Source: an uncultured bacterium
Lineage (GTDB): Bacteria; Hydrothermota; UBA3073; NMUJ01; CBEVQO01
Direction of reading: 5' to 3'
Length of the DNA: 64,000 nucleotides
Assembly: GCA_965552055.1 (NCBI GenBank)
Contig: CBEVQO010000001.1
Location: forward strand, 1-64,000
The notes under the pieces are model-generated. The model searched no databases. It was not told where the DNA came from and saw nothing but the letters and a program-made list of their open reading frames with translations. Made by a program: the position numbers and the translations under genes. Below, piece by piece: positions 1,690 to 58,110 of this stretch (position 1 is its first letter; each line of letters starts with the position of its first letter).

Positions 1690-1716
1690 TTGACAAAATT
1701 TCATATTGTGTAAAAT
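1690..1716 (+). promoter_or_regulatory. Sigma70-type promoter TTGACA-N15-TAAAAT
   Basis: TTGACA 1690-1695, TAAAAT 1711-1716, GTG start 5 nt later. Confidence 0.75.
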
Positions 1717-1721
1717 AATCT

Positions 1722-2897
1722 GTGAAGTTGTTTTATTTTGCACCGAATACTGTTCAGTTGCCCCGTGCAGACAGTATCTGCATCGTGCAAGCATGTGAAG
1801 GCTTCTCACGAATTAAAGTAAACACCACTATCATAAGTTTATATTGCAGAATAAATAAAAAAGATAAACCTTCTGCTAACTTAAACAAATTATATAATGT
1901 TAAAAATGTAAATTTCATCATCTTACCTTCTTTCACTTTGAAATGGCCATTACAGGGCTTTATCCAGATTTTATCCTCAATTGAGCGCCTGATAAGATAT
2001 TCTCTATTCTCCTTACATCTATTCAGAAAATTCAAAAAAGAAACTGCGATATTTTATGTGAAAAACTTTTCTTTACTTTTTTCGTTTTATCTTTTGCGCA
2101 AAATTTTATCCGCACATTCTATAAAATTAATCTTTGAGATACACAATATAATTATGTGGAAGCCAAAACTTTTCTTTTTGCGTTTTGCCGATAAAATTAT
2201 CGCAAATAATGAATTTATCGGGAAAATTATAAGAGAAAAATTTCCACAAGCCAGGGTAATCGTCGTGCATCAGGGAATAAAAAGCGAATTGCTTACAGAT
2301 GTGAAGCCACACTCTTATTATCGGGAAAAATTAGGCATACCCCTGAATAAAAGAATCGTGGTTTATACCGGTAAAATCGCACCAAAGAAAAAGGAAATTC
2401 ATAATTATATAGAGGTGGCAAAAGAATTTGAAGATTCAAATGTCTTATTTTATCTGGTAGGAGGACGGTCGCAAAATGTAGAGTATTTTAAAAAATATAT
2501 AAAAAAGAAGGGCATCAGAAATATTGTATTTACTGGTTTCGTTTACGCTCCTCTTGTTTATTATTACCAGAGGGCAGCGGATATTTTACTTTTATGTTAT
2601 GATAAAACAGAATGCAATTCGCTATCTCCCCGTTCACCCACAAAACTTTTTGAATATATGAGCGCATGTCGCCCTATAATAACTACTCCTTGCCCGGGTG
2701 TTGACGAAATTTTAAAGGACGGCGAAAATGCTTTATTTGTCCCCTTTGGTGATATAAACGCTTTAAAAAAGGCAATCGAGAAGTTATTAAATGATGATAA
2801 GTTATCGAGAAAATTAGCTCAAAATGCAAGAAAATTAGTAGAAAATTATACCTGGGAAAAGAGAGCGCAGAAAATCATTGAATTTGTCTTCGATTAA
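1722..2897 (+). CDS. Glycosyltransferase family 4 (GT-B)
   Basis: SPTKLFEYMSACRPII motif; YTWEKRA C-terminus. Confidence 0.9.
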   Translation: MKLFYFAPNTVQLPRADSICIVQACEGFSRIKVNTTIISLYCRINKKDKPSANLNKLYNVKNVNFIILPSFTLKWPLQGFIQILSSIERLIRYSLFSLHLFRKFKKETAIFYVKNFSLLFSFYLLRKILSAHSIKLIFEIHNIIMWKPKLFFLRFADKIIANNEFIGKIIREKFPQARVIVVHQGIKSELLTDVKPHSYYREKLGIPLNKRIVVYTGKIAPKKKEIHNYIEVAKEFEDSNVLFYLVGGRSQNVEYFKKYIKKKGIRNIVFTGFVYAPLVYYYQRAADILLLCYDKTECNSLSPRSPTKLFEYMSACRPIITTPCPGVDEILKDGENALFVPFGDINALKKAIEKLLNDDKLSRKLAQNARKLVENYTWEKRAQKIIEFVFD

Positions 2898-2904
2898 AAA
2901 TCCA

Positions 2905-3633
2905 CTAATAGGTTACCATTCCGCCGTCAACATTTATCACCTGACCTGTTATATACGATGCCTCGTCGGATGCAAGGAATGCTACAAGGTTCGCAACATC
3001 GTCAGGTGTGCCTGCTCTTCCAGCCGGTATTATCTCCATATATTTTTTCTTGACATCATCCGGTAATTTTGCGGTCATCTCTGTTTCTATGTAACCAGGT
3101 GCTATGGCATTGCATGTTATTCCTCTTTTCGCTACTTCTTTTGCAACGGATTTAGTAAAACCAAGAATCCCTGCTTTTGATGCTGCATAATTCGCCTGTC
3201 CTGCATTACCCATAATTCCTATAACAGAAGATATGTTTATTATCCTTCCCCAGCGTTTCTTTATCATACCGGATAGATATACTTTTGTGCAATTGAAAAC
3301 ACCCTTTAAATTAACGGCAATAACTTTATCCCAATCTGCTTCTGTCATTCTCAGTAAAAGTTTGTCTATTGTTATTCCTGCATTGTTTACAAGTATATCG
3401 ATATCTCCTGTTTCTTTTGCCATGTTTTCAACTTCAGAATAATTCGATATATCCGCTTTTACGAACTTCACTTCGCCAATTTGTGATAACTCTTTTTCGG
3501 TTTTCTTTCCTGCTTCTTCGTTTATATCCACGATGTAAACTTTTGCACCTTCTTTGAGAAAGCGCTCGGTGATAGCTCTTCCTATGCCCCTGGCTCCACC
3601 TGTAACAAGGCAAACTTTACCTTTAAAACGCAT
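2905..3633 (-). CDS. fabG: 3-oxoacyl-ACP reductase
   Basis: TGGARGIG, NNAGIT, YAASK and DGGM motifs. Confidence 0.93.
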   Translation of the reverse strand: MRFKGKVCLVTGGARGIGRAITERFLKEGAKVYIVDINEEAGKKTEKELSQIGEVKFVKADISNYSEVENMAKETGDIDILVNNAGITIDKLLLRMTEADWDKVIAVNLKGVFNCTKVYLSGMIKKRWGRIINISSVIGIMGNAGQANYAASKAGILGFTKSVAKEVAKRGITCNAIAPGYIETEMTAKLPDDVKKKYMEIIPAGRAGTPDDVANLVAFLASDEASYITGQVINVDGGMVTY

Positions 3634-3642
3634 AACCCCTCC

Positions 3643-4530
3643 TTACTTCCTCGCAAAGATATCAGCAAGTTTACATTTAATAAGGTCTTCGGGAATGTTA
3701 TGCCTTATACCCCAGTAAATACCTTCAACATCCTTAATCATGCCGATTACTCTGCCTTTTTCATCTATTTCTTTCAATTTTTCTTTTAGATTCCACAGCA
3801 ATAGATGTAAAAATTCTTCCAAATCCTCTATCTCACCCAATATTTGCAACTTCTTTCTTACATCTGCTTCAATGAATTTCCTCACCATTTGATTTAGTGC
3901 AAGTAATTCACCCGATGCTATCTTCAAAGCGATATCAAGTCGCCCCTGTGAAATGCTGGCTATATCTTCTGCATAAGCACTTACCATATTCAGATTATCT
4001 TCAAGGTATTTCTTTATCTCTTCTTTTTTCAATTTCCTGAATCTTATTTTCTGGCATCTTGATATTATTGTTGGATAAAGTCCAAAAATGTTTCTTGTTA
4101 TCAGAATAAAAGTTGTATCCGAAGGTGGTTCTTCCAGTGTCTTAAGGAATGCATTTTGTGCTTCTCTATTCATCTTTTCTGCTTCCCTTATTATTACAAA
4201 ACGCCTCTTTAAATGCACTTTTTTAAATCCTACTTCTTTTTTTATATCCCTTATAGTATCAATTTTTATCTGGTCGGTATCTTCAGGTTCAACAATTTTA
4301 AAATCGGGAGTCCTTTTTTCATCTATCAATCTGCAATTTCTGCATTTATCGCAAAAATCCCATTCTTTTTCGAGACAATTCACTGCTTTTGCGAAAGCAA
4401 CAGCCACTAAAAATTTACCAACACCATCTTCGCCGTAAAATAAATAAGCGTTGGGTATTTTATTGTTTCTCATTGCATTCAAAAGTATTTTTTTAGCGAG
4501 CTCCTGACCTATTATTTTATTGAAACTCAT
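3643..4530 (-). CDS. holB: DNA polymerase III delta' subunit
   Basis: LFYGEDGVGK, C-x6-C-x2-C-x2-C zinc site, NAFLKTLEEPP, TIISRC. Confidence 0.9.
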   Translation of the reverse strand: MSFNKIIGQELAKKILLNAMRNNKIPNAYLFYGEDGVGKFLVAVAFAKAVNCLEKEWDFCDKCRNCRLIDEKRTPDFKIVEPEDTDQIKIDTIRDIKKEVGFKKVHLKRRFVIIREAEKMNREAQNAFLKTLEEPPSDTTFILITRNIFGLYPTIISRCQKIRFRKLKKEEIKKYLEDNLNMVSAYAEDIASISQGRLDIALKIASGELLALNQMVRKFIEADVRKKLQILGEIEDLEEFLHLLLWNLKEKLKEIDEKGRVIGMIKDVEGIYWGIRHNIPEDLIKCKLADIFARK

Positions 4531-5582
4531 CGCAGATACAAAAGCGGGTCAACGGCTTTACCTCTGTCACGCAATTCAAAATGCAGACAGGGGCGGTCAG
4601 CTGCTCCTGTATCCCCCACCTCACCTATAACATCGCCCTTCTTAACCCTATCTCCGTATTTCACATAAATATCCGCAAGATGAGCATAAAGCGAGAAGAA
4701 ACCATTTTGATGGTCTATCAAAATTATTTTACCATAACCAAGAAAAATACCTGTGTGCACTATCACTCCATCTGCACATGCACGAACAGGCGCACCATAA
4801 TCAGCTGCTATATCTATACCTTTATTAACAAGTACTGTACCATATCTCTTATCATAAATCTTTCCAAATTTCCTTATAATTTCACCTTTAACCGGCCATA
4901 TTATCGCAAAATGGCGAACCCTTCTATATTTCCTTTGCATCTTCTCTTTTATCAACTTCTCTAATTTGCTACGCTCCGAAAGTAATTCTTTCAACAATTT
5001 TTCCTTTTGAGACCTCTGACTTCTTATTTTCTTCAACAAATATGATTTCCTTTTCCTTTGCTTTTTTATCAATGCATATTCGCGTTCCAGTTTTCTACGG
5101 GTTTCTTTCAATTTTCTTAGTTTTTCGGAACTAACTTTAATGACAGTTCTTAAAGAATCCCTTCTCATTTTAAGCCGTGTAATTTTCCTGTAGTCATACT
5201 CCATCATTATCTCTAATAATTTTATCCTCATTTCTTCTTCTCCATTTAGTTTACTTTTGTAAAGTAGCAGTAATTTATCTGAAAGCAAATTTTTATATTG
5301 CTGTAGTTTATCCTGCAAAGAGAAATCTCTTTTATCGAGTGTTTCTAATTCTTTTTTCAATTTTTGCTCTTCTCTTTTTAATTTTTTTACTCTTTTTTGT
5401 GCCCGTTCAATGGTTTTGTCGATTCTTCTTAATTCGGCTAACAATTTTGTCTCTTTTTCTCTTAATTTTTTTTGTTCCTTCTTCGTTTCTATGATTTTCT
5501 TCTTTATTTGCTCAAGTTCTTTTTCTGGCTCTTTTGCCAGCAGTATTAAAGGCACTATCAAAAGAATTCCGGAGCTTCTCAT
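4527..5582 (-). CDS. EnvC-like coiled-coil M23 peptidase / murein hydrolase activator
   Basis: Signal peptide, long coiled coil, NKGIDI...YAHL...LHFELR M23 domain with a degenerate first zinc ligand. Confidence 0.85.
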   Translation of the reverse strand: MRSSGILLIVPLILLAKEPEKELEQIKKKIIETKKEQKKLREKETKLLAELRRIDKTIERAQKRVKKLKREEQKLKKELETLDKRDFSLQDKLQQYKNLLSDKLLLLYKSKLNGEEEMRIKLLEIMMEYDYRKITRLKMRRDSLRTVIKVSSEKLRKLKETRRKLEREYALIKKQRKRKSYLLKKIRSQRSQKEKLLKELLSERSKLEKLIKEKMQRKYRRVRHFAIIWPVKGEIIRKFGKIYDKRYGTVLVNKGIDIAADYGAPVRACADGVIVHTGIFLGYGKIILIDHQNGFFSLYAHLADIYVKYGDRVKKGDVIGEVGDTGAADRPCLHFELRDRGKAVDPLLYLR

Positions 5583-6061
5583 CCTTTAAATTTTATCTTA
5601 AACAGGTTTTCTTTTAAATTCTCATTATAGCGGACATCTTTAAATTTATAAATAATTTCTTCCTCTGTGATAATTTCTTTTATCTCGGGTATTCCCTTAC
5701 TTTTTTTTACATCAAATTGCATAACGAATTGATATTCGTCTGGCATTGTTATTCTGTATTTTCTTTTACCGATTTTCATAACCTTTGCGAATTCCCATGA
5801 GCTGAGAAAATACTCCACAGGATTTTCTTCAAGGGGACTTTCTGAAATTATAGTATCTTCTCCGATAATTTGACAAAAATCATTTCTGTTAAAGATTAAA
5901 ATTTGTCTCTGTGGATAATGGATATCTATTCGCAGCTTATCGGGGCGCTTTGAGTAAATTACACCATAAATTGTATCTTCATCTTCAATTTGATAAAAAT
6001 GAGCATAAAATGTTTTTATCTGGGATAGGAAATCGAGAACCATTATTAAAGCAATCACCAT
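5579..6061 (-). CDS. LolA-like outer-membrane lipoprotein carrier protein
   Basis: TFYAHFYQ, KRPDKLRIDIHYP and N..L..NLF pattern of the LolA fold. Confidence 0.65.
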   Translation of the reverse strand: MVIALIMVLDFLSQIKTFYAHFYQIEDEDTIYGVIYSKRPDKLRIDIHYPQRQILIFNRNDFCQIIGEDTIISESPLEENPVEYFLSSWEFAKVMKIGKRKYRITMPDEYQFVMQFDVKKSKGIPEIKEIITEEEIIYKFKDVRYNENLKENLFKIKFKG

Positions 6062-6186
6062 ATCTGCGTGCTCACACCCTCTCTTATAATACTTTCTGAT
6101 TCTGCTTCAAAACCAGAGTTCGCGAGTCCAGAAGTATTAACGCTTTTCTCCTTTACTTTTATCTCTATCTCCAATCTTAACGCCAT
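6055..6186 (-). pseudogene. 43-aa ORF, possible internally deleted retropepsin-like protein
   Basis: Read by hand: MALRLEIEIKVKEKSVNTSGLANSGFEAESESIIREGVSTQIW*, with GAGG upstream and stop overlapping the lolA-like ATG. ANSGFE resembles a clan AA-type motif. Confidence 0.4.
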
Positions 6187-6234
6187 AGCGCCTCTGTAAA
6201 TAACTTTTCTCTATCATATAACCTATGAATCTTC

Positions 6235-7284
6235 TCATTCTGTATCGAGTTCTTCCTGCAACTTATCTATTATTTCATCGAGTTCGCCTTCCAGAATTTC
6301 TTCAAGTTTATAGAGTGTCAATCCTATTCTGTGGTCTGTAACTCTATTTTGCATAAAGTTATATGTTCTTATTTTTTCTGCTCTCTCACCTTCTCCAACC
6401 TGTTCACGCCTCATCTTTTGTTCTTTCTCATGTTCTTCCTTCAATTTTTTCTCATACAATCTTGCGTATAAAATCCGCAATGCTTTTTGCTTATTTTGAT
6501 ACTGTGAGCGCTCATCCTGGCAGCTAACCGTAATACCCGTTGGTATATGCACAACTCTCACAGCAGTCACTGCTTTGTTAACATATTGACCACCATGACC
6601 CGATGCCTTAAAAGTATCTATCCTTATATCATTTGGATTTATCTGTATTTCGACCTTCGTTGGCTCAGGTAGCACCGCCACACTCGCAGTAGATGTGTGT
6701 ATCCTGCCACTGCTCTCTGTAACAGGTACTCTTTGCACTCTATGGACTCCGCTTTCGAATCTCAATCTTTCATAAGCATCTTTACCTTTTACCGCGAAAA
6801 TGACTTCTTTGTAACCGCCTATACCTGTTTTGTGTTCGCTTAAAATTTCAACATCCCAGCCTTTTTTCTCAGCATACTTCAAATACATTCTGAAGAGGTC
6901 AAGAGCAAATAGAGATGCTTCATCACCACCTGCACAAGCCCTTATCTCCATAACAACATTACCGGTGCCTATTTTTTTCTTCCTCAATAAATTCTTAATC
7001 TCCCTTTCTATTTTTTGAAGATTCTCCTTTAAATCTTCAATTTCTTCCTTCGCCACTTTTATTAGTTCTTCGTCATCTCCTGTTTCAATTATCTCCTCAT
7101 CTTCTTTTATCTGCTTTTTTATTTTCTTGTATTCTTCATATAAATTTTGCAACTGAAATAATTTTTTTTGCTCTTTTGATAGTTCTGCGAATTCCTCCTG
7201 TGTTAAATTTTTTGGATTTTGCAATTTTTCTGTTATTTCTTTAAGTTTTTCGAGAGCCGAATTTATTTTTTCTTCGATATTCAT
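6235..7284 (-). CDS. prfA: Peptide chain release factor 1
   Basis: PVT anticodon-mimic motif, GGQ, IRTYNF. Confidence 0.96.
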   Translation of the reverse strand: MNIEEKINSALEKLKEITEKLQNPKNLTQEEFAELSKEQKKLFQLQNLYEEYKKIKKQIKEDEEIIETGDDEELIKVAKEEIEDLKENLQKIEREIKNLLRKKKIGTGNVVMEIRACAGGDEASLFALDLFRMYLKYAEKKGWDVEILSEHKTGIGGYKEVIFAVKGKDAYERLRFESGVHRVQRVPVTESSGRIHTSTASVAVLPEPTKVEIQINPNDIRIDTFKASGHGGQYVNKAVTAVRVVHIPTGITVSCQDERSQYQNKQKALRILYARLYEKKLKEEHEKEQKMRREQVGEGERAEKIRTYNFMQNRVTDHRIGLTLYKLEEILEGELDEIIDKLQEELDTE

Positions 7285-7955
7285 TGTAATAATTTTTGAA
7301 ATAAAGGCAACAAATCCTGAAATTTTTCCACCTTATAATCTGCGTATTTTGATTCTCCTTTGCCTATCATCACGGTTGTGAAGCCCATTTCCTTTGCAGG
7401 TTTCATATCGTATTCTTCCATATCACCGACATAAAGCGCTTCTTCGGGTTTAACTTCTGCTCTCCTCAGTGCTTCTTCAAATATCCTTTTATCGGGTTTT
7501 GAAATACCAAAACCTTCCGATGTAACGATAGTATCAAAAAATTCTAAAATGCCATGCCGGTCAAGTTCCAAAAACAAAAATTCATCATCAATATTTGAGA
7601 TTATACCAAGATGAAAACCTTTTGATTTCACAAATTTTAATACATCAGGTACTCCTTCGTAAATCCTGCAATATAATCTGTGCATTCTATAATACCAGAA
7701 GTTTATCAAATATACTTCTTCATCCGTTAATTTTCTGTTTATCACTTTTTCAACCGCATTTCTGAATCTTTTTCTCGCGGATATCCATTTTTCCGTAACG
7801 GGTTCATATTCGAAAAAGTTTTTCAACAATTCTTCCGGAGTTATCTTCAACTTAAATTTATCTATTATAAGGCGTGCAATCTCATCATGTGCCTTCTTAT
7901 CCGATTGCAAATCCATTATAGTCCCACCATAATCAAAGAATACCGCTTTTATCAC
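7281..7955 (-). CDS. HAD-superfamily hydrolase
   Basis: FFDYGGT (motif I), SN, KPD, VGD...D. Confidence 0.88.
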   Translation of the reverse strand: MIKAVFFDYGGTIMDLQSDKKAHDEIARLIIDKFKLKITPEELLKNFFEYEPVTEKWISARKRFRNAVEKVINRKLTDEEVYLINFWYYRMHRLYCRIYEGVPDVLKFVKSKGFHLGIISNIDDEFLFLELDRHGILEFFDTIVTSEGFGISKPDKRIFEEALRRAEVKPEEALYVGDMEEYDMKPAKEMGFTTVMIGKGESKYADYKVEKFQDLLPLFQKLLQ

Positions 7956-7964
7956 CTCACCCCC

Positions 7965-9056
7965 TTATACCTTTCCACCTTTAAAAATTTCAACATCCAA
8001 TTCGGGTGGCTTAAATTTAAATTTTTTATAACTCCTTTTACCTATTTTTACTTTTATCTTTTTCTTTTTCCCTTTTCTTAAAATCAACATATCAACTTCT
8101 TCATCGGGATGCTCTTTTATCAACTTTGTTAGTTCTTCAACCGAATTTATTTTTTCGCCATTAAATTCAAGGATTATATCCCCTTCTTTTAATCCTGCTT
8201 TTTCTGCGGGAGAATTTTCTTCTACTTTTTCAATTATCACACCGTAATCTATATCGAGTGCAGATTTTAAAGCATCATCTAAATCTTTGAGCCATACACC
8301 TAAATATCCTTTTTCCTCTTTCTCGGGCTCTATTTTTATCTCATATCTGTATTTATACTGCTTCCTTTTGCCGATTTTCACTTTTATTTCTTTCTTTTTG
8401 CCTCTTCTTATTATTAAAATTTTTACCTTTTTCCCTGCTTTATCTTCTATTGCTTCTTCGAGGTCATTTTCGGAATTTATTTCTTTATCATTTATTTTTT
8501 GTATTATATCACCGATTTTTATACCTGCTTCATCTGCTGGTGAGCCAACCACCACATCTTCAACGAGCACACCTTTATCAACACCAAGACATGTTTTCAA
8601 AGCATCATCAAGCTCCCTTACCTTTACTCCAAGATAAGCAACTTCTTCCTCTACCTTTTCAAATCCACCAAAACGCTTATGCTTAAAAATATCGAAAAAT
8701 TCTTTAAAAAAGTCAAAGGGAAATTCGGGGAATTCGGGAAATTCGGGATACTCCTCTTCTTCTAAAATTGCCTTTACATTTATATCTTTGCCTTTCCTTT
8801 TTATAAAGATAGTAACCGTATCGCCTTCTTCTTTTTCCCCAACATAATCACGCAAATCATCCACATCTTCTATCTCTTCGTCATCTATTTTATAAATTAT
8901 ATCGCCCTTCTTTATGCCTGCTTTTTCAGCAGGAGAATCCTCAATCACTTCTTTAACAACAACTCCGTGCTCTATTCCGAGTGCATCATAAAGAGCATCA
9001 GGAATATCCTGAACCCTGACTCCAAGGAAAGCAAATATGAGGAACATGGCAAGCAT
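7965..9056 (-). CDS. Secreted triple-PDZ-domain protein
   Basis: Three LGV...SPAEKAG.K.GDII repeats, short signal peptide, no protease domain. Confidence 0.85.
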   Translation of the reverse strand: MLAMFLIFAFLGVRVQDIPDALYDALGIEHGVVVKEVIEDSPAEKAGIKKGDIIYKIDDEEIEDVDDLRDYVGEKEEGDTVTIFIKRKGKDINVKAILEEEEYPEFPEFPEFPFDFFKEFFDIFKHKRFGGFEKVEEEVAYLGVKVRELDDALKTCLGVDKGVLVEDVVVGSPADEAGIKIGDIIQKINDKEINSENDLEEAIEDKAGKKVKILIIRRGKKKEIKVKIGKRKQYKYRYEIKIEPEKEEKGYLGVWLKDLDDALKSALDIDYGVIIEKVEENSPAEKAGLKEGDIILEFNGEKINSVEELTKLIKEHPDEEVDMLILRKGKKKKIKVKIGKRSYKKFKFKPPELDVEIFKGGKV

Positions 9057-9074
9057 AACCCCTCCTACTTTATT

Positions 9075-9101
9075 ATTTTAATCATAAAGCACTTTTGTCA
9101 A
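9075..9101 (-). promoter_or_regulatory. Promoter TTGACA-N15-TAAAAT (PDZ operon)
   Basis: Minus strand TTGACA 9101-9096, TAAAAT 9080-9075, followed by AGGAGG SD. Confidence 0.75.
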
Positions 9102-9112
9102 GCATACATTTA

Positions 9113-9139
9113 TTGACAAAGATAAATTTTGGTTATTTT
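9113..9139 (+). promoter_or_regulatory. Promoter TTGACA-N15-TATTTT
   Basis: TTGACA 9113-9118, TATTTT 9134-9139, GTG 5 nt later. Confidence 0.65.
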
Positions 9140-9144
9140 CAATT

Positions 9145-10005
9145 GTGATAAAATTTTCGATAATCATCCCGCATCATAAAAATCCGGAGAATTTAAAAGA
9201 ATTGCTTAACTCATTAAAAACACAAAATAATTTTGAAATTATAATCGTAAACAATGCTTCAAATACAAACTTTTCTTTTCTCAGAAATTATCCTTTAAAA
9301 ATCAAGCTTTTAAATTTAAGCAAGAACAAAGGTTTTGCCGGTGGCGTAAATGCAGGCTTGAATGTGTGCACAGGCGAATGGATTGTAATAACAAATGACG
9401 ATGTGGTATTTTCAAAAAATTTCTTTAAAATTCTTAATAAACTTGTTGAAACCAAAAAAGAGATTAAAGTAATTGCCCCATTAGTTTTGAATTATTATAA
9501 CAAAAATGTTATAGATTCGTGCGGGATTCATTATCCTTTGAATTGTCGTCCTTATAACATTGGACATGGTGAAAAGCTATCTGCTGAATTTTTAAAAGAA
9601 AGATGGGTGATGGGCTTTACGGGTGCATGTGCTGTTATAAAAAGAGAAATTTTAATGAAAGAAAAATTTGATGAAAGTTTTTTCTGCTATTTTGAAGATG
9701 TAGATTTATCTCTCAGGTTATACAAAAAAGGCATAAAAACCTATTTTTCACCTGATTTAAAAGTTTATCACAAAGAAGGTTCCACAATTTCATCAAATCC
9801 CGGCTTAAAAGTATTTTTGATTTCGCGGAATAAAATCTGGACGATTTACAAGAATTTTAGCTTTTTTGAAATTTTAAAGAGGAGTCCTTTTATTTTCTGG
9901 GGATTGGTTCAAAGTGCTGGCTATCATTTTTTGATTTCGGATAAATTTCTGGAGTTTCTTACCGGCACTTTATCTGGCTTTCTTTATCCTTTAAAAGTGC
10001 TGTGA
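9145..10005 (+). CDS. Glycosyltransferase family 2
   Basis: SIIIP, NKGFAGGVN, NDD, FCYFEDVDL motifs. Confidence 0.9.
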   Translation: MIKFSIIIPHHKNPENLKELLNSLKTQNNFEIIIVNNASNTNFSFLRNYPLKIKLLNLSKNKGFAGGVNAGLNVCTGEWIVITNDDVVFSKNFFKILNKLVETKKEIKVIAPLVLNYYNKNVIDSCGIHYPLNCRPYNIGHGEKLSAEFLKERWVMGFTGACAVIKREILMKEKFDESFFCYFEDVDLSLRLYKKGIKTYFSPDLKVYHKEGSTISSNPGLKVFLISRNKIWTIYKNFSFFEILKRSPFIFWGLVQSAGYHFLISDKFLEFLTGTLSGFLYPLKVL

Positions 10006-11169
10006 AACTGCATTACCATAAGCATCTGTCTTTATGAGATAAACATCACATTCACCTGCACCGAAAGATTCAGTTTTGCCTGCAATTATGAAGCCACCAT
10101 CCTGTGTCTGCTGAACTGAATAGCCACAATCATCATCGCTTCCTCCATAAGTTTTTGTCCACTCGACATTACCATTGGCATCTGTCTTTATGAGATAAAC
10201 ATCACACCTACCTGCACCGAAAGAGTAAGTCCAGCCTGCAATTATATATCCACCATCCTGTGCTTGCTGAACTGATTTGCCCCAATCATCATAGCTTCCA
10301 CCATAAGTTTTTGTCCATTCAACATCGCCGTTTGCATCTGTCTTTATGAGATAAACATCATAACTGCCTGCACCGAAAGAAGAAGTTACGCCTGCAATTA
10401 TGAAGCCACCATCCTGTGTCTGTTGAACTGAAAAGCCCCAATCATAATCGCTTCCGCCATAAGTTTTTGTCCATTCAACATTACCATTGGCATCTGTCTT
10501 TATGAGATAAACATCAGCACCACCTGCACCGAAAGACTCAGTTTCTCCTGCAATTATATATCCACCATCCTGTGTCTGCTGAACTGAATAGCCTCGATCG
10601 TCATCGCTTCCGCCATAAGTTTTAGTCCATTCGACATTACCATTGGCATCTGTCTTTATGAGATAAACATCAGCATAACCTGCACCGAAAGAAAAAGTGT
10701 AGCCTGCAATTATATATCCACCATCCTGTGTCTGTTGAACTGAATAGCCACAATCCCAGCCGCTTCCGCCATAAGTTTTTGTCCATTCAACATTGCCGTT
10801 TGCATCTGTCTTTATGAGATAAACATCCTCATAACCTGCACCGAAAGAGTAAGTTTTGCCTGCAATTATAAAGCCACTATCCTGTGTCTGCTGAACCGAA
10901 TAGCCCCAATCATCATATCTTCCGCCATAAGTTTTAGTCCATTCGACATTTCCATTAGCATCTGTCTTTATGAAATAAACATCAGCCCCACCTACACCGA
11001 AAGAACAGGTGTATCCTGCAATTATGTATCCATCCTGTGTCTGCTGAACCGAATAGCCATAATCATAATCGCTTCCGCCATAAGTTTTAGTCCACTCAAA
11101 CTCTTTCCACTTCCTTTTACATGTTATCGCTATCAATAAGCAAAGTAGAATAAGGTAAAATTTTTTCAT
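9991..11169 (-). CDS. Lipoprotein with seven 52-aa beta-propeller repeats
   Basis: Lipobox IAITC; 7x WTKTYGG...DVYLIKTDANG repeats. Confidence 0.88.
   Translation of the reverse strand: MKKFYLILLCLLIAITCKRKWKEFEWTKTYGGSDYDYGYSVQQTQDGYIIAGYTCSFGVGGADVYFIKTDANGNVEWTKTYGGRYDDWGYSVQQTQDSGFIIAGKTYSFGAGYEDVYLIKTDANGNVEWTKTYGGSGWDCGYSVQQTQDGGYIIAGYTFSFGAGYADVYLIKTDANGNVEWTKTYGGSDDDRGYSVQQTQDGGYIIAGETESFGAGGADVYLIKTDANGNVEWTKTYGGSDYDWGFSVQQTQDGGFIIAGVTSSFGAGSYDVYLIKTDANGDVEWTKTYGGSYDDWGKSVQQAQDGGYIIAGWTYSFGAGRCDVYLIKTDANGNVEWTKTYGGSDDDCGYSVQQTQDGGFIIAGKTESFGAGECDVYLIKTDAYGNAVSQHF
10006..11094 (-). repeat. Coding tandem repeat, 7 x 156 bp (first unit 153 bp)
   Basis: gcatctgtctttatgagataaacatc recurs at 156-nt period (e.g. 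10022, 10178). Confidence 0.95.
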
Positions 11170-11177
11170 TTCCCCTC

Positions 11178-11840
11178 CTATCTTCCGAATTTGTAAATTT
11201 CTGATTTGCCACGGGTTGCAATGAAATATTCCCTTTCTGCTATTTTCCTGCCCTTTAACTCACAATATACCTTTATCGTCAGTCGCCCGGAGTGAAGATG
11301 GGGACCTCCCCTTACCGTTATCTTAACGGATTTTGTCTCCCATACACCTATTTTCCCGGTAGAAACAGGTTTGCTTATGATGATTTCATCTTCATATTCG
11401 GGTGATAACAACTCGCATTTAACTTTTAGTGAAGGTGCTGTTCTTTTCATAAGGTTTGTTACCCTGCAAACGAGTGTAAAAGTTTCGCCAGCATCGAGCA
11501 CACCGTTATTATTCGGGTCAACGATTTCTACATCCAGTCTCACATTCACTTTCTTTTCCTTTTTCTTTTCCTTCAACAAAAATCCACCAGCAAGAGATAT
11601 AACCCCCGTGACAAATGTAACATCTCTCACGATGTCGCATGTTATCGTCAATTTCTTATATCTGTCGGCTTCGTCCTGAGTTTCTGCATCCCAGTGTTTT
11701 CTGTAGAAATATTCGCCAAGTAGAGCCGATGCACCACAGCACAGTAGAGAGGCAATGCCTGCTTTGCGTAGAGCGTGCCTGAAATCACCCCACAATATGC
11801 TACTTATAAGTAAAGATATTAGCACTAACCTTAACTTCAT
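11178..11840 (-). CDS. Membrane protein with helical hairpin and C-terminal Ig/CARDB-like domain
   Basis: Signal peptide, two hydrophobic helices, DPNNNGVLDAGE Ca-binding-like motif, beta-rich tail. Confidence 0.6.
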   Translation of the reverse strand: MKLRLVLISLLISSILWGDFRHALRKAGIASLLCCGASALLGEYFYRKHWDAETQDEADRYKKLTITCDIVRDVTFVTGVISLAGGFLLKEKKKEKKVNVRLDVEIVDPNNNGVLDAGETFTLVCRVTNLMKRTAPSLKVKCELLSPEYEDEIIISKPVSTGKIGVWETKSVKITVRGGPHLHSGRLTIKVYCELKGRKIAEREYFIATRGKSEIYKFGR

Positions 11841-11865
11841 AATGCCTCCTTATTGATTATCCTAA

Positions 11866-11892
11866 ATTATAGCAAAGATATAAAATTGTCAA
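11866..11892 (-). promoter_or_regulatory. Promoter TTGACA-N15-TATAAT (perfect consensus hexamers)
   Basis: Minus strand TTGACA 11892-11887, TATAAT 11871-11866, AAGGAGG SD downstream. Confidence 0.8.
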
Positions 11893-11903
11893 TAATTTTT
11901 AAT

Positions 11904-12060
11904 GCGAGCGTAAGCGAGCTTATTACATATGGGTTGATATGTCAGCCCATTACGGGTTTTGGGTTGTGGCAGGGGTTGTGGCTTTATCTGCTGTTTGCGT
12001 ATTTTAGCGGTAGGAGTGGGCTGACTTAATCGGGAAGGCGGGGACAGCGGAGGCGGGGCT
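11904..12060. other. Unexplained GC/G-rich structured intergenic element
   Basis: Inverted repeat gtcagcccatt/agtgggctgac, direct repeat gggttgtggc x2 and several GGG runs, in an otherwise AT-rich intergenic region. Confidence 0.5.
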
Positions 12061-12071
12061 AAAAATTTTGC

Positions 12072-12098
12072 TTGACAAATTAAAATTTTGATTATAAA
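12072..12098 (+). promoter_or_regulatory. Promoter TTGACA-N15-TATAAA (rpmB)
   Basis: TTGACA 12072-12077, TATAAA 12093-12098. Confidence 0.65.
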
Positions 12099-12105
12099 AG
12101 ATGAT

Positions 12106-12300
12106 ATGGGTAGGTGTTATTTCTGTGGCAAGGGTCCTGTATCCGGTCACAGGATTTCGCATTCACATAGGGTTACGGGCAGGTGGTTTCATCCCAATTT
12201 ACAAAAAGTAAGGGCTATCATTGACGGCAAAGTGAAGCGTATATGGGTTTGTACCAAATGTCTTAAATCCGGCAAAGTCCAGCGTCCCCCTTTGAAATAA
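12106..12300 (+). CDS. rpmB: 50S ribosomal protein L28 (zinc-ribbon type)
   Basis: [12 protein letters not shown]...SHS....R.FHPNLQ...CTKCLK; ATG at 12106. Confidence 0.93.
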
Positions 12301-13176: not shown

Positions 13177-13177
13177 C

Positions 13178-13588: not shown

Positions 13589-13593
13589 CTATT

Positions 13594-19589: not shown

Positions 19590-19681
19590 TGGCGGAGAGG
19601 GTGGGATTCGAACCCACGACTCCCCTTGCGGGGAGTATGGCGTTTCCAACGCCACTCCTTAGGCCACTCGGACACCTCTCC
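19590..19681 (-). tRNA. tRNA-Ser(GGA)
   Basis: GGAGAGG acceptor stem, anticodon arm TGGCG-TTGGAAA-CGCCA, long variable arm, GGTTCGAATCC, encoded CCA. Confidence 0.96.
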
Positions 19682-19688
19682 TTACACT

Positions 19689-19715
19689 ATTTTATCAAAT
19701 TTCAGAAAATGTCAA
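19689..19715 (-). promoter_or_regulatory. Promoter TTGACA-N15-TAAAAT (tRNA-Ser)
   Basis: Minus strand TTGACA 19715-19710, TAAAAT 19694-19689; tRNA begins 7 nt later. Confidence 0.8.
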
Positions 19716-20670: not shown

Positions 20671-20697
20671 ATTTTACTTATCTTACACCTTTGTCAA
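20671..20697 (-). promoter_or_regulatory. Promoter TTGACA-N15-TAAAAT (ychF-like)
   Basis: Minus strand TTGACA 20697-20692, TAAAAT 20676-20671. Confidence 0.75.
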
Positions 20698-25715: not shown

Positions 25716-25742
25716 TTGACAATGTCAATAAAAGATTAAAAT
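25716..25742 (+). promoter_or_regulatory. Promoter TTGACA-N15-TAAAAT within palindrome TTGACAATGTCAA
   Basis: TTGACA 25716-25721, TAAAAT 25737-25742; reverse TTGACA at 25728-25723. Confidence 0.75.
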
Positions 25743-35174: not shown

Positions 35175-35201
35175 TTTACAATGTTATATTTTTCCTATAA
35201 T
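35175..35201 (+). promoter_or_regulatory. Promoter TTTACA-N15-TATAAT
   Basis: TTTACA 35175-35180, TATAAT 35196-35201, ATG 5 nt later. Confidence 0.75.
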
Positions 35202-36216: not shown

Positions 36217-36243
36217 TTGACATTTTTGAAAAATGAGTATATT
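36217..36243 (+). promoter_or_regulatory. Promoter TTGACA-N15-TATATT (rnpB)
   Basis: TTGACA 36217-36222, TATATT 36238-36243, RNA starts ~36248. Confidence 0.75.
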
Positions 36244-36247: not shown

Positions 36248-36521
36248 GAGTCGGGCAGGTGCGCTCGCCCGAAAGGGAGGAAAGTCCGGGCACCATGGTG
36301 GGCACCCGGGGTTAACCCGGGGGATGTGGCGCAATACACGCCACATCACGGAGAGTGCCACAGAGAGCAGTCAGCCCTTCGGGGCGATGGTGAAAGGGTG
36401 GGGTAAGAGCCCACCGGCCGGGCTGGAGACAGCCCGGTGCTCGGCAAACCCTGCCCGGTGCAAGGCGTTAGCCGCTTAGACGAATGAGCGCTAAACAGAA
36501 CCCGGCTTACCTGCCCGGCTC
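36248..36521 (+). ncRNA. rnpB: RNase P RNA (reduced type-A-like)
   Basis: GAGGAAAGTCCGGGC (CR-I), AGTGCCACAGAGA, GGTGAAAGG, GGCAAACC, ACAGAACCCGGCTTA (CR-V); P1 ends are complementary. Confidence 0.96.
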
Positions 36522-36531
36522 GTTTATTACT

Positions 36532-46702: not shown

Positions 46703-47108
46703 CTCGCTCAGTTTTACCTATTTCGCCTTCTTCAAAAGAAACTTCAAGAACCTTTGAAAAAACAATTTGCGCTATCCTCATTCCTTTTTCAATTTTAAAT
46801 TTCTCTTTCCCAAAATTAAAAAGGATAACTTTTATTTCTCCCCTGTAATCTGGGTCTATTGTGCCCGGAGAATTCAATAGCCCTATCCCATATTTTGCAG
46901 CAAGACCACTCCTTGGTCGGACTTGTGCTTCAACATCGTTTGGAAGTTCTATCGCAATACCACATGAAACAACTGCATATTCACCTGGATTTAAAATCTT
47001 CTCTTCGACAGAAAAAAGGTCATAGCCGGCGGAATAAGGGGTTGCTCTTACAGGAATTTTTGCATCGGGGCAAAGTTTCTTAATCCGTATTTTTATCATT
47101 CATAATAG

Positions 47109-47180
47109 CGGCCCCAGCGGGAGTCGAACCCGCGCTTTTGGCTTGAAAAGCCAATGTCCTAACCGCTAGACGATGGGGCC
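47109..47180 (-). tRNA. tRNA-Glu(TTC), CCA not encoded
   Basis: GGCCCCA/TGGGGCC acceptor stem, TTGGC-TTTTCAA-GCCAA anticodon arm, GGTTCGACTCC; followed by CTA. Confidence 0.95.
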
Positions 47181-47187: not shown

Positions 47188-47214
47188 ATATTATCCAAAA
47201 TGCCAGTTTGTCAA
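47188..47214 (-). promoter_or_regulatory. Promoter TTGACA-N15-TAATAT (tRNA-Glu)
   Basis: Minus strand TTGACA 47214-47209, TAATAT 47193-47188; tRNA 7 nt later. Confidence 0.75.
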
Positions 47215-48057: not shown

Positions 48058-48074
48058 TTTACCCTCCTTCAAAT

Positions 48075-48101
48075 ATTATAATCCAAATTTTAAAAAGTCA
48101 A
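48075..48101 (-). promoter_or_regulatory. Promoter TTGACT-N15-TATAAT
   Basis: Minus strand TTGACT 48101-48096, TATAAT 48080-48075. Confidence 0.75.
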
Positions 48102-54528: not shown

Positions 54529-55328
54529 TTCCTGTAAAAGTATCTGCCTTCTTTTTTCACAACATCAAAAAATTTATAACCATCAGGAATATAAATATCA
54601 AAAGTTGTAATTATACCTGCTTCTCTTAATCTTTCCTTTAAAAAATTCAATAATTTCTCAAAATTTTGTGGTTCTTCCCTGAATATCATTTCTCTACAAA
54701 GTATTATGTCGAATACATCATCGGGCAATGATTTTTGTAAAATTATTTTAAAAGGCAAATTCTCAAATCTTATTTTCATTTTCTTTTTGAAATCAACAGA
54801 AAACAATAGCTGGTGTTTTGCAACACGAAAAACCCTTTCATACATTTTTGTATCCATGTTTACCGATTTTTCAATGTTATAAACACCTTTCTTTGCTTCC
54901 TTAATCCAGTAATCACTTGGCTCTACTCCGTAAAATACAACATCCCAATCATGTAAAACCTGCCAGAAATATGCGGACATAAGAAAAATAAAAGAATAAA
55001 ACTCTTCCCCTGTCCTGCAACCCAAAAACAAAATCCTTAAACTTTTATCATCTTCCCTTTTTCTTATTATTTCTGGGATAAATTCTTTCCTTAAAATTTC
55101 AAATGTATCTTCATCTTTAAAAAACTTACTCCTCGTATTGAGAACATCGCACAAATATTGATGGAATAAAATTTTTGAATATGGTTGAAATTTTATGTAA
55201 TAATAAAATTCTTCATCGGTTTTTAATTTTAGTTTTCTTTTCATTTTTTGAATCGCTTCTCTTATCTTACCATCGGGTAATGATTTAAAATCTGTTATTT
55301 TTTTAACTTCAAGAAGAAGTTGCGTCAC
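54525..55328 (-). CDS. CheR-like SAM-dependent methyltransferase
   Basis: GCRTGEEFYS, AKKGVY, FDIILCRE. Confidence 0.75.
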   Translation of the reverse strand: MTQLLLEVKKITDFKSLPDGKIREAIQKMKRKLKLKTDEEFYYYIKFQPYSKILFHQYLCDVLNTRSKFFKDEDTFEILRKEFIPEIIRKREDDKSLRILFLGCRTGEEFYSFIFLMSAYFWQVLHDWDVVFYGVEPSDYWIKEAKKGVYNIEKSVNMDTKMYERVFRVAKHQLLFSVDFKKKMKIRFENLPFKIILQKSLPDDVFDIILCREMIFREEPQNFEKLLNFLKERLREAGIITTFDIYIPDGYKFFDVVKKEGRYFYRK

Positions 55329-57642
55329 CGATTGCTATCCTTACCACATCCTCTATTTTATCAACAAATTCAAATTTTAATCCTTCTTTTATATGCTCTG
55401 GCACTTTATCCAAATCTTTTTTATTCCATTTTGGCAAAATAACTGTTTCTATTCCTGCTCTTTTTGCAGCTGTTACTTTTTCTCTTATTCCACCTACTGG
55501 TAATACTTTTCCTGTCAATGTTATTTCTCCTGTCATCGCTACCTTTGGATTTACTGGTTTTTGTGTGAAAAGTGATACAAGTGCTGTTGCTATTGCTACT
55601 CCTGCGGAAGGTCCGTCTTTGGGTATAGCACCTTCTGGCACATGAACATGCACCGTGCACTTATCGAAAGCTTCTGGTTTTATTCCGAATTTTTGAGCAT
55701 TTGCTCTCACATAGGTCAAAGCAGCGTGCGCTGATTCACGCATTATATCACCAAGATGACCTGTCAGAATTAATTCTTCTTTGCCTTTCATTTTTGCTGT
55801 TTCTATAAAAATTATGTCGCCTCCAAAAGGTGTCCAGCTGAGACCTGTTGCCACACCCACTTCGCCCTGACGCGCAGCAACTTCAGAGTAATATCTGGGA
55901 GGACCCAAAAATTCTTCAACCTTATCGGGAGTTATTACCACTTTCATCTCCTTACCGCTTGCTATCTCTTTTGCCACTTTACGCAAACACGCTGCTATCT
56001 CACGCTCAAGATTGCGAACACCCGCTTCTCTCGTATAATCCGTTATTATCTTCTCAATAGCAGACCTCGTAAATTTAACAACTTCAGGAGTTAAGCCATT
56101 TTCTTTTATTTGCCTTGGAATCAAATAATTTTCTGCGATTCTTAATTTATCTTCAAGAATATATCCAGGGATTTCAATTATTTCCATTCTATCTCTTAAT
56201 GCTGGAGGTATCGTATCAACTCTATTTCCTGTTGCTATAAATAAAACTTTTGATAGGTCAAAAGGCACTTCGAGATAATGGTCAGAGAAGCTGTGGTTTT
56301 GCTCTGGGTCGAGCACTTCTAACAGTGCAGCAGAAGGGTCGCCTCTAAAATCTGCTCCAATTTTATCAATTTCATCAAGCATAAATACTGGATTTTTTGT
56401 ACCTGCGCGCCTTATTCCCTGAATTATCCTGCCGGGCAATGCACCAACATAAGTGCGCCTGTGACCCCTTATTTCTGCCTCATCCCTTATACCACCGAGC
56501 GAAATGCGAATGAATTTCCTGCCAAGAGCACGCGCTATGGACATACCAAGGGATGTTTTGCCCACACCTGGCGGTCCTATAAAACAAAGAATAGGACCTT
56601 TTGTATCTTTCCTCAATTTTCTTACAGCAAGAAATTCCAAAATTCTTTCTTTTACATCCTCAAGGTCATAATGGTCTTCATCCAGAATTTTCTTGGCTCT
56701 TTCAACATCAAGATTATCTTCGGTTTCAACAGACCATGGCAGATTTATAAGCCAGTCAAGATATGTTCTTATAACGGTGTATTCAGCAGCGGCTATCGGC
56801 ACCTTTTCCAATCTTGCTAACTGTCTTAATGCCTCTTCTTCTGCTTCCTTGGGCATTTTTGCTTCTTTTATTTTCTTCCTCAATTCTTCGATTTCTGCTT
56901 CTTTTTCATCAAGTTCACCCAATTCTTTTTTGATAGCTTTTAATTGTTCTCTCAAAAAGTATTCTCTCTGGGTTTTATCAATCTCCTCTTTTACTTCTTC
57001 TCTTATTTTTTCTCCAATTTTCAAAATGTTTTCTTCTTTAACAAGAAGTGGTATCAATTTTTGCAATCTTTCTTTTACATTTATCGCTGCCAAAATTTGT
57101 TGTTTTTCTTCTGTTTTTAGATTCACCTGAGATGCTATAAAATCTGCGAGTTTACCTGGCGATGTTATATTTTCAACTACTATTTTTGCCTCATCTGATA
57201 GATATGGTGCTCTATCCACTATCCTTGCAAATACGGATTTGACACTTCGCATAAGGGCTTCTGTTTCAACATCTATTTCTTCTTCTTTTTCTTCAATAAC
57301 TGTCACTTCACCAACAAGATAAGGTTCTTCTTTTATTATTTTGTCGAGTTTTATTCTTTTCATGCCCTGTACGAGTATTTTTACAGTGCCATCGGGTATT
57401 TTTAACATTTTCAAAATTACAGCCATTACACCGACTTTATGGATATTATCGGGATTATGAGGGTCTTTCTGTGGGTCAATTACCGTAAAAGCTGCCAGTA
57501 GTTTGTCTTTTGTAACAACTTCATCTATCAATTTAACTGACTTGTCGTCCGTTGCTGTAAGTGGTACCGCAAGAAATGGGAAAATGACTATATTCTCTAC
57601 AGGTAATATTGGCAATGTCTTTTTTTCTTCTTTTTTAATCAT
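55309..57642 (-). CDS. lon: ATP-dependent Lon protease
   Basis: GPPGVGKTS, LDEIDK, PKDGPSAG Ser, GGIREK Lys. Confidence 0.97.
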   Translation of the reverse strand: MIKKEEKKTLPILPVENIVIFPFLAVPLTATDDKSVKLIDEVVTKDKLLAAFTVIDPQKDPHNPDNIHKVGVMAVILKMLKIPDGTVKILVQGMKRIKLDKIIKEEPYLVGEVTVIEEKEEEIDVETEALMRSVKSVFARIVDRAPYLSDEAKIVVENITSPGKLADFIASQVNLKTEEKQQILAAINVKERLQKLIPLLVKEENILKIGEKIREEVKEEIDKTQREYFLREQLKAIKKELGELDEKEAEIEELRKKIKEAKMPKEAEEEALRQLARLEKVPIAAAEYTVIRTYLDWLINLPWSVETEDNLDVERAKKILDEDHYDLEDVKERILEFLAVRKLRKDTKGPILCFIGPPGVGKTSLGMSIARALGRKFIRISLGGIRDEAEIRGHRRTYVGALPGRIIQGIRRAGTKNPVFMLDEIDKIGADFRGDPSAALLEVLDPEQNHSFSDHYLEVPFDLSKVLFIATGNRVDTIPPALRDRMEIIEIPGYILEDKLRIAENYLIPRQIKENGLTPEVVKFTRSAIEKIITDYTREAGVRNLEREIAACLRKVAKEIASGKEMKVVITPDKVEEFLGPPRYYSEVAARQGEVGVATGLSWTPFGGDIIFIETAKMKGKEELILTGHLGDIMRESAHAALTYVRANAQKFGIKPEAFDKCTVHVHVPEGAIPKDGPSAGVAIATALVSLFTQKPVNPKVAMTGEITLTGKVLPVGGIREKVTAAKRAGIETVILPKWNKKDLDKVPEHIKEGLKFEFVDKIEDVVRIAIGDATSS

Positions 57643-58078
57643 CTTCTACCTCCACTTCGATTATTTTTGGCTTTTTCTTTCTAAATCTTATTTTGAAAAT
57701 GCCGTTTATATTTTCTATTTCACAGGTTGATTCTATTTTACAAGGTAACTTTATGTATCTGCTGAAACTACCGAAGGGTATTTCCATCTTATGGCATCTT
57801 CCTTTTTGTAAGGGAGGAAGTGGAAACAATCTCTGTCCCCAGATATGCAATACATTTTTATCGTTTATAGAAATGTTTATATCTTCTGGGTCAACACCTG
57901 GCAACTCCAAAAGCAAAATTATTTCTTCTGGTGTTTCATAAAGGTCTGTGGAAGGCGAAAATGTTTTTTCGATAAAAGCAGGCAACCTGTGATGGAAAAA
58001 AGTTTCAAAAATGGTTTCTATTTCTTTGTGAGCTTCTTCAATTATACGCAAAATATTTTTTGTAATCCTATCAGCCAT
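57635..58078 (-). CDS. Hsp20/alpha-crystallin small heat-shock protein
   Basis: DLYET, ELPGV, EI.FGSFSR.I.LP, NGIFKI. Confidence 0.9.
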   Translation of the reverse strand: MADRITKNILRIIEEAHKEIETIFETFFHHRLPAFIEKTFSPSTDLYETPEEIILLLELPGVDPEDINISINDKNVLHIWGQRLFPLPPLQKGRCHKMEIPFGSFSRYIKLPCKIESTCEIENINGIFKIRFRKKKPKIIEVEVEDD

Positions 58079-58083
58079 CAATT

Positions 58084-58110
58084 ATTTTAATCACTTTTTG
58101 TGGATGTCAA
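58084..58110 (-). promoter_or_regulatory. Promoter TTGACA-N15-TAAAAT (hsp20-lon)
   Basis: Minus strand TTGACA 58110-58105, TAAAAT 58089-58084, ATG 5 nt later. Confidence 0.75.

Follow-up and report, generated by a model that had tools for sequence, protein, structure and literature searches.

The stretch of DNA considered here, referred to as the window, comprises the opening 64 kb of contig C1 in the genome under study (G000), an assembly of 2.23 Mb in 15 contigs with a G+C content of 35.6%. Its genes are those of an ordinary chromosome (fabG, holB, prfA, dapA, a gyrA-like gene, gatB, tgt, lon, era, pyrB, pyrR and tmk), accompanied by many glycosyltransferase genes, a gene for a PorU-like sortase, two transfer RNA (tRNA) genes and the RNase P RNA gene. 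The element in question is the promoter type placed upstream of many of these genes, in which the −35 and −10 hexamers are separated by 15 nt. It had been reported in a first-pass annotation that 14 sites of the window have exactly this spacing, and all 14 were located where it had placed them (Table 1). Ten of them combine TTGACA with TANNNT, and the remaining four deviate once each (TATAAA at 12072, TTTACA at 35175, TAATAA at 35139 and TTGACT at 48101); the −35 box is an exact TTGACA in 12 of the 14 sites, the exceptions being the TTTACA and TTGACT just named.

Table 1. Promoter sites with a 15-nt spacer and the structural RNA genes that they precede in the window; distances are counted from the −10 hexamer. 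ORF, open reading frame.
Feature	Positions	Strand	Remarks
Promoter TTGACA-N15-TAAAAT	1690..1716	+	5 nt to GTG of glycosyltransferase ORF 1722-2897; leaderless type
Promoter TTGACA-N15-TAAAAT	9075..9101	-	HtrA/DegP-type protease gene 7965-9056; Shine-Dalgarno-like sequence, ATG at 18 nt
Promoter TTGACA-N15-TATTTT	9113..9139	+	GTG of glycosyltransferase ORF 9145-10005 at 5 nt; back to back with the site at 9101 (-)
Promoter TTGACA-N15-TATAAT	11866..11892	-	ORF 11178-11840; Shine-Dalgarno-like sequence, ATG at 25 nt
Promoter-like TTGACA-N15-TATAAA	12072..12098	+	Last base of −10 off consensus; ATG of 64-amino-acid ORF 7 nt downstream
tRNA-Ser(GGA)	19590..19681	-	Mature 5′ end 7 nt past the −10 hexamer
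Promoter TTGACA-N15-TAAAAT of tRNA-Ser	19689..19715	-	
Promoter TTGACA-N15-TAAAAT	20671..20697	-	YchF-like ORF 19717-20667; in-frame TTG codons at 3 and 6 nt
Promoter TTGACA-N15-TAAAAT	25716..25742	+	Shine-Dalgarno-like AGGAGG, then ATG of ORF 25765-27252 at 22 nt; short leader
Promoter-like TTGACA-N15-TAATAA	35113..35139	-	ORF 33514-35109, in-frame ATGs at 3 and 6 nt; back to back with the site at 35175 (+)
Promoter TTTACA-N15-TATAAT	35175..35201	+	5 nt to ATG of GalE-like epimerase 35207-36124; leaderless type
Promoter TTGACA-N15-TATATT of RNase P RNA gene	36217..36243	+	
RNase P RNA, bacterial class A	36248..36525	+	171.8 bits against a gathering score of 100
tRNA-Glu(TTC)	47108..47180	-	Mature 5′ end 7 nt past the −10 hexamer
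Promoter TTGACA-N15-TAATAT of tRNA-Glu	47188..47214	-	
Promoter TTGACT-N15-TATAAT	48075..48101	-	ORF 47224-48072; Shine-Dalgarno-like sequence, ATG at 17 nt
Promoter TTGACA-N15-TAAAAT	58084..58110	-	ATG of 147-amino-acid ORF at 5 nt, leaderless type; upstream of lon 55309-57642

Spacer Length in the Genome

In the window, the pattern TTGACA-N13..19-TANNNT was matched 20 times, against 6.7 ± 2.7 times in shuffled sequence (none of 100 shuffles reached 20), and 11 of the 20 matches had a spacer of 15 nt (N15). When TTGACA-Nx-TANNNT was counted across the genome for x from 10 to 24, the numbers were 46, 40, 26, 32, 45, 416, 93, 106, 48, 41, 95, 54, 82, 80 and 36, a histogram with a single sharp peak at 15. 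With TAWAAT as the −10 box, the counts were 253 at N15, 47 at N16 and 17 at N17, and allowing one mismatch to the 12 consensus bases gave a further 283 sites at N15, against 93-192 at other spacers.

The ORFs were called by a crude in-house caller and cover 92.9% of the genome, and 323 of the 416 N15 sites have their midpoint in the 7.1% that lies outside them. An upstream gap of 40 nt or more precedes 666 genes, of which 275 had an N15 match with no more than one mismatch, compared with 61 at N16 and 17-36 at each of N13, N14, N17, N18 and N19. In the 176 upstream gaps without a match, no motif stood out except Shine-Dalgarno, and a second promoter class that would serve RpoD, which had been considered, was not detected in them. 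Moreover, a scanner for promoters with spacers of 16-18 nt reported 75 sites in positions 1-20000 of the window, against 72.9 ± 9.9 by chance. The N15 type is the sole promoter class detectable in the genome, and it serves 20 tRNA or transfer-messenger RNA (tmRNA) genes, rnpB, protease genes and many other genes.

A position matrix built from the 416 sites reads, from upstream to downstream, an A/T-rich stretch, C, TTGACA, aa, a T-tract, TGaT and TAWAAT, in which the TG lies 3-4 nt before the −10 hexamer and A/G-T-G follows at +6..+8 after it. The −10 consensus is TAWAAT, and A occupies its fourth and fifth positions at 80% and 72% of the sites, respectively.

Register of the −10 Box and Leaderless Starts

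A spacer of 15 nt could arise from mis-registration, in which case the functional −10 box would sit 2 nt downstream and the spacer would be the canonical 17 bp. As the first-pass annotation had noted, and as holds when the site sequences are read, a shift of 2 nt gives TANNNT at three of the 14 window sites only (35175, 11892 and 48101), and the genomic count at N17 is somewhat above its neighbours; against this, N17 has just 17 sites when TAWAAT is required, and N15 has 253. The register was examined with fixed landmarks, namely the 5′ ends of tRNAs, the start of the RNase P RNA and start codons. An exact TT[GT]ANN-N15-TANNNT lies upstream of 20 of the 47 tRNA and tmRNA genes, every one of these with TTGACA as its −35 box, and for 17 of the 20 the mature 5′ end falls 6-9 nt past the hexamer; most of the remaining 27 genes are internal to clusters or have a −10 box one base off TANNNT. 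Position 1 of the RNase P RNA model lies 5 nt past the −10 hexamer of its gene, so that a −10 box shifted by 2 nt would put the start inside the RNA. At 304 of 414 sites, the start of an ORF of at least 80 amino acids follows within 20 nt, with a peak at 5 nt between hexamer and start codon, and in the 522 sites of the form TTGACN-N15-TANNNT an ATG or GTG opening such an ORF occurs at 5, 6, 7 and 8 nt in 152, 64, 27 and 23 cases, respectively. Because RNA 5′ ends and start codons are too near the hexamer, the 17-nt reading, for which too little room had already been claimed, is excluded at such sites, and mis-registration as a general explanation is scarcely credible.

The spacing of start codons suggests that about half of the 15-bp promoters, those with a start codon 5-8 nt past the −10 hexamer, would give rise to leaderless messenger RNAs, and the landmarks also suggest a distance between box and transcription start about one base shorter than usual. 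In G000, leaderless messages would thus seem to predominate. Start codons this near the −10 box were far rarer in the samples from relatives (9 of 45 sites in G001, of the sister family described below, and 4 of 35 in G007, a 17-bp genome).

Several tRNA genes outside the window abut or overlap by one base, in the orders Thr-Gly-Tyr-Thr, Cys-Gly and tmRNA-Asn-Arg (G000:C1:199112-199416, C2:464723-464870 and C6:77207-77669, respectively). Together with first tRNAs that begin 6-9 nt past the −10 box, this arrangement points to minimal leaders and spacers for RNase P and 3′ processing.

The 15-bp Spacer among Relatives

The order that includes the genome under study, which is the sole genome of family f1, has one other family, the sister family f2, which is represented by the genomes G001, G002 and G003, and the families f3, f4, f5, f6 and f7 belong to the same class, with f4 sampled by eight genomes. 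The pattern TTGACA-Nx-TAWAAT was counted in 40 relatives. In contrast to G000, the eight f4 genomes had 0-3 sites at N15, 0-9 at N16 and 146-265 at N17, and in G035 the corresponding numbers were 5, 224 and 17; the tendency is towards 16 in many other families and towards 17 in f8 and f12, and f3 peaks at 16-17. The sister family has few TAWAAT boxes, its −10 boxes resembling TAnnTT, and with TANNNT the counts at N15, N16 and N17 were 99, 46 and 26 in G001, 89, 35 and 20 in G002, and 62, 27 and 14 in G003, for which reversed-pattern controls gave 11-19. In a scan of 272 genomes of the phylum, including G000, the 253 exact N15 sites of G000 were followed by a next highest value of 16, in a search that used TAWAAT alone and that lineages like f2 could escape.

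Judged from these counts, the 15-bp rule is a derived trait of one order, and the optimum elsewhere in the phylum varies between 16 and 17. The proposal of the first-pass annotation that the main promoter class has a non-canonical, lineage-wide geometry has in this way been borne out, and tRNA genes, rnpB, protease genes and many others are served by this class.

Among relatives outside the order, including G035, G014 and f4, the peak is sharp at 16 bp in some lineages (e.g., G035) and at 17 bp in others (e.g., f4), and regions 2-4 of RpoD are of the same length across those lineages. A small 15-bp regulon in f3, which might have been a footprint of the short sigma factor described in the next section, was considered and rejected: TAWAAT was counted 16, 9 and 4 times at N15, N16 and N17 in G004, and no pattern was seen in the four N15 sites that were read. 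In the samples fetched from G004, G001 and G007, tRNA promoters were too few for comparison.

Sigma Factors of the Order

The genome under study encodes a 575-amino-acid RpoD with regions 1.1 to 4, a sigma factor of 272 amino acids, another of 252 amino acids and two of the size of extracytoplasmic function (ECF) sigma factors. The 272-amino-acid protein (G000:C5:66579-67398), called here the short sigma, has no region 1.1 and obtained its best scores with the RpoS and RpoD models, under their cut-offs, and not with FliA; its relatives, which often carry the name RpoD/SigA or primary sigma factor in the source records, are widespread in neighbouring phyla. The operon of the short sigma begins with a perfect TTGACA-N15-TATAAT. 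For the rpsU-dnaG-rpoD operon, no TTGAC-type box pair with N15 or N16 was found on that strand within about 15 kb upstream.

The only sigma factors of each of the three f2 genomes are one group-1/2-like protein (281 amino acids, an orthologue of the short sigma) and one ECF sigma factor of 175 amino acids, and no classical RpoD was found in them by protein query or by the region 2 family, G001 being 99% complete. In the sigma tree, the RpoD clade (support 100/99) stands apart from the short sigmas, among which that of G000 joins those of f2 (82/84), and the longest terminal branch of the RpoD clade is that of the G000 RpoD (0.76 versus 0.003-0.51). Over regions 2-4, this RpoD shares 46.7% identity with those of the other families of the class, which share 61.5% with one another. 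The corresponding values are 54.8% and 58.8% for RpoB, a small acceleration, and 40.0% and 37.3% for the short sigma, which is not accelerated. Where regions 2.4-3.0 otherwise have the invariant sequence WWIRQAI(T/S)RAIADQ(A/S)RTIR(V/I)P(V/I)H, the G000 RpoD reads WWVRQQIMKAISEHSRVYRIPPH, and it also lacks the glutamate that comes next in other RpoDs. In E. coli sigma70, those positions of regions 2.4 and 3.0 read the −12 base and the TG of the extended −10 box. The first-pass annotation had missed that f2 follows the 15-bp rule with no classical RpoD and that no RpoD of the class has diverged as far as that of G000. What changed is probably the choice of sigma factor.

It could instead be supposed that the 15-bp promoters are read by the classical RpoD of G000 with its remodelled regions 2.4 and 3.0, in which case the short sigma of f2 would have gained its preference separately, or both would follow a change elsewhere in the enzyme. 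The RpoD is indeed intact with all its regions and is encoded in its usual operon, the aromatic melting residues of region 2.3 and the −35-reading RERIRQ motif of region 4.2 are kept, and its changes cluster where sigma70 reads the −12 base and the extended −10 box. The TG of the G000 promoters is one base more distant from the hexamer than that of the 17-bp genome G007. Such an explanation, however, would have the 15-bp rule arise twice or else call for a shared cause that has not been seen, and it has to accommodate the absence of RpoD from all three f2 genomes that keep the rule, the fast evolution of RpoD beside a short sigma that does not evolve fast, and an rpoD operon with no 15-bp promoter nearby. 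We consider it unlikely.

Besides these differences, the N-terminus of the G000 RpoD (G000:C7:57373-59100) has, as judged by eye, two similar segments that look like region 1.1 and that both precede a lysine-rich stretch. Pfam gives a single region 1.1 match, at residues 16-65, and the segments may be a duplication.

The length of the sigma linker was tried as the cause of the shorter spacer and proved uninformative, being constant across spacer classes. A check of the spacing between sigma regions for indels, which had been proposed along with the sites, showed that each of the 30 RpoD proteins has 150-151 residues between the WW motif (region 2) and the RER motif (region 4.2).

RNA Polymerase Core

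Among the causes offered by the first-pass annotation was a remodelled geometry of sigma region 4 and the beta flap, to be checked by indels in the flap tip and the beta′ zinc finger, and the segments aligned gave no support for it. An alignment of 30 RpoB proteins had no indel in the flap-tip segment of the four 15-bp genomes, and the N-terminal part of beta′ (about 400 residues, which include the zinc-binding domain, the zipper and the clamp helices) had no order-specific indel. As regards the residues or partners that set the 15-bp distance, sigma linker length, flap tip and beta′ N-terminus give, in these alignments, no order-specific indel. RpoC has a 4-residue insert private to G000, and a variable insert of RpoB after the flap is short in G000 and equally short in relatives with 16-17 bp.

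A change that does not involve indels was also considered, in which an accessory protein or order-specific point substitutions of the core would reposition region 4 on the flap, and any bound sigma factor would then measure 15 bp. One cause would in this way cover both sigma types of the order, no change of sigma length accounts for the shift, and the shifts between 16 and 17 bp in a phylum with a canonical RpoD of constant length suggest that the distance is tuned by means other than sigma indels. The core regions that were aligned show no such indel, as said above, and the proposal rests on the absence of other explanations; we regard it as quite improbable.

After the flap of RpoB, a coiled-coil-like insert (residues ~880-960 of the G000 protein) is 40-70 residues longer in f4, f8, f12, f13 and others than in G000, f2, f3, f5, f6 and f7. 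Its length does not follow spacer class.

DNA Topology

Reverse gyrase was found above the cut-off in G000 (C4:82901-86113), G001 and G002, all with 15 bp, and also in G029 (16 bp) and in G026 and G038 (17 bp). The only GyrA homologue of G000 is encoded in the window (27242-29584, plus strand; 780 amino acids) and scored below the GyrA cut-offs. It lacks the segment that holds Q-x-R-G-G-x-G in 28 of the 30 other aligned relatives, a motif that is kept by G001 and G002 and degenerate in G031. We take this segment to be the GyrA-box, which has a role in negative supercoiling. From these gene contents, the DNA of G000 may not be negatively supercoiled.

A topological origin of the rule would be that relaxed or positively supercoiled DNA in a heat-loving cell shifts the best spacer to shorter lengths. 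The reverse gyrases and the GyrA of G000 speak for it, and a published model with data from E. coli, in the portion of the article available, has relaxed DNA favouring short spacers (Forquet et al. 2022; PMC9303308). Nevertheless, reverse gyrase as a sufficient cause was rejected by its presence in 16- and 17-bp lineages, and loss of the GyrA-box by its restriction to G000 and G031, G001 and G002 keeping the box and using 15 bp. By our own estimate, moreover, a difference of 2 bp made up by twist alone would require a very large change in superhelical density, and the 7-angstrom distance would not be shortened by it. Topology may sharpen the 15-bp preference in G000 and cannot be the shared cause of the rule; hence the suggestion of an unusual DNA topology stands for a contributor at most and falls for a shared cause. 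As a full explanation, a topological shift is very unlikely.

Proposed Explanation

The explanation that we favour, and to which about an even chance is given, is that the 14 sites of the window are copies of the main promoter type of G000 and are read by a polymerase carrying the short sigma, a protein of the RpoD/SigA type, and not by one carrying the classical RpoD. In this scheme, the common ancestor of the order would have handed housekeeping transcription to the short sigma, after which the classical RpoD would have been lost in f2 and would have drifted in G000. The short-sigma holoenzyme of the order would set region 4 about 2 bp nearer region 2, with a discriminator about 1 nt shorter. 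The wider claim, that the order has re-set its initiation ruler, with a principal short-sigma holoenzyme, unchanged boxes, a 15-bp spacer, a shortened discriminator, and an RpoD sidelined or lost, is put forward tentatively and falls somewhat short of an even chance. If it is true, region 4 would be repositioned relative to region 2, a geometry unseen in any studied polymerase.

Several observations weigh against this use of the short sigma. Every relative with 16 or 17 bp also carries a short sigma, and in its WW-to-RER distance that protein does not differ between this order and those relatives (147-148 residues in both). The RpoD of G000, with the retained motifs described above, could itself read N15 promoters. 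The comparisons of sigma factors, flap tip and beta′ N-terminus brought out no sequence feature that sets the four 15-bp genomes apart. A run search with the stretch returned 17 DNA runs and zero RNA runs, and all start sites are inferred. Finally, in the Calditrichales chromosome G274, whose only sigma factor of this kind is a short-family protein of 287 amino acids, TTGACA-N15-TANNNT was counted 24 times versus 38 in the reversed control and the N17 form 48 times versus 25, and in the Melioribacteraceae genome G275 TTGACA-TANNNT was enriched at neither N15 nor N17. The absence of N15 enrichment in G274 and G275 indicates that a short sigma alone does not give 15 bp. An intrinsic 15-bp preference of the short sigma family was in fact tried on four outside genomes and rejected, the two with a short sigma only being without N15 enrichment where N15 and N17 were counted.

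Comparison with Known Promoter Systems

With the sigma70/SigA promoters (TTGACA-17-TATAAT), the promoters of G000 share the hexamers, the C before TTGACA, the A/T-rich upstream stretch and the role of main promoter class, and f4, which belongs to the same taxonomic class as G000, has promoters with these flanks at a spacing of 17 bp. They differ in that the optimum is 15 and not 17, the TG lies 3-4 and not 2-3 nt before the hexamer, and the transcribed features start about 1 nt nearer to the hexamer. Spacers of about 15 bp are normal for some group-3 sigma factors, such as FliA/sigma28 and the sporulation sigma factors, which read different boxes and have small regulons. These systems have in common with G000 a polymerase able to work at about 15 bp, whereas the boxes of G000 are those of housekeeping promoters and, besides tRNA genes and rnpB, hundreds of genes depend on the class.

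Two surveys of 49 species give 17 bp as the predominant spacer, or as the median of each genome, and describe the spacer as essentially fixed (PMC12641261; 10.64898/2026.09.23.753901), and the available part of a preprint on spirochetes gives 16-18 bp only (10.64898/2026.02.09.704077). A literature search on 15-bp spacers, on WOR-3 promoters or sigma factors and on lineage optima did not bring up any lineage described as having its housekeeping optimum at 15 bp. The supercoiling-dependent spacer preference of E. coli offers, in the portion of the source at hand, the same physical reason for short spacers in relaxed DNA, and it describes modulation around a 17-bp optimum in one organism, in contrast to the fixed lineage optimum at 15 observed here (PMC9303308).

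For a promoter change that runs through a whole lineage and goes with a short primary sigma factor, the closest precedent is the −33/−7 promoter of Bacteroidetes. There, according to the accessible text of PMC6847099, sigma-ABfr is a short primary sigma factor without region 1.1 and the lineage-wide promoters read TTTG / TANNTTTG, with T-12 and A-11 in their usual place. Common to both is a lineage-wide change of the housekeeping promoter together with a short sigma lacking region 1.1, whose primary role is inferred in G000. Moreover, the family of the G000 short sigma includes records labelled Bacteroidetes, and the −10 boxes of f2, of the TAnnTT form, are a further point of likeness. The two differ in what was altered, since in G000 the hexamers are canonical and only the distance changed, whereas in Bacteroidetes it is the boxes that have changed, with the register kept, and the accessible text of PMC6847099 mentions no 15-bp rule. 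In fact, the Bacteroidetes −7 element TANNTTTG is not the −10 consensus of G000, in whose 416 sites A prevails at hexamer positions 4 and 5 and no TTTG follows.

The 17-bp spacer has been treated as a near-constant of bacterial transcription, and promoter predictors hard-code 16-18 bp, in the parts of these sources available (PMC12641261; 10.64898/2026.09.23.753901); predictors of this kind would be expected to miss nearly all promoters of this lineage. Within one phylum, sharp optima at 15, 16 and 17 bp occur with the same hexamers, and one branch has and lacks RpoD side by side. The phylum is therefore a natural series for what sets the distance between sigma regions 2 and 4, testable by swaps of sigma factor and core among close relatives, and a natural test case for how RNA polymerase measures promoters. 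The compact near-consensus promoters (box, 15 bp, box, 5 nt, start codon) may also suit expression in heat-loving hosts.

Other Features of the Window and Genome

The top outside matches of Lon and of the short sigma carry the label candidate division WOR-3, and most of the DNA runs matching the stretch bear labels of hydrothermal vent or sediment metagenomes. For the RNase P RNA, the match spans just 278 nt against the 367 positions of the class A model, and the RNA appears reduced. Divergent promoters are arranged back to back, with about 10-35 nt between their −35 boxes, at 9075-9139 and 35113-35201 in the window, and further pairs of this kind were found at G000:C1:111291-111358 and 164659-164722, filling nearly all of the intergenic DNA.

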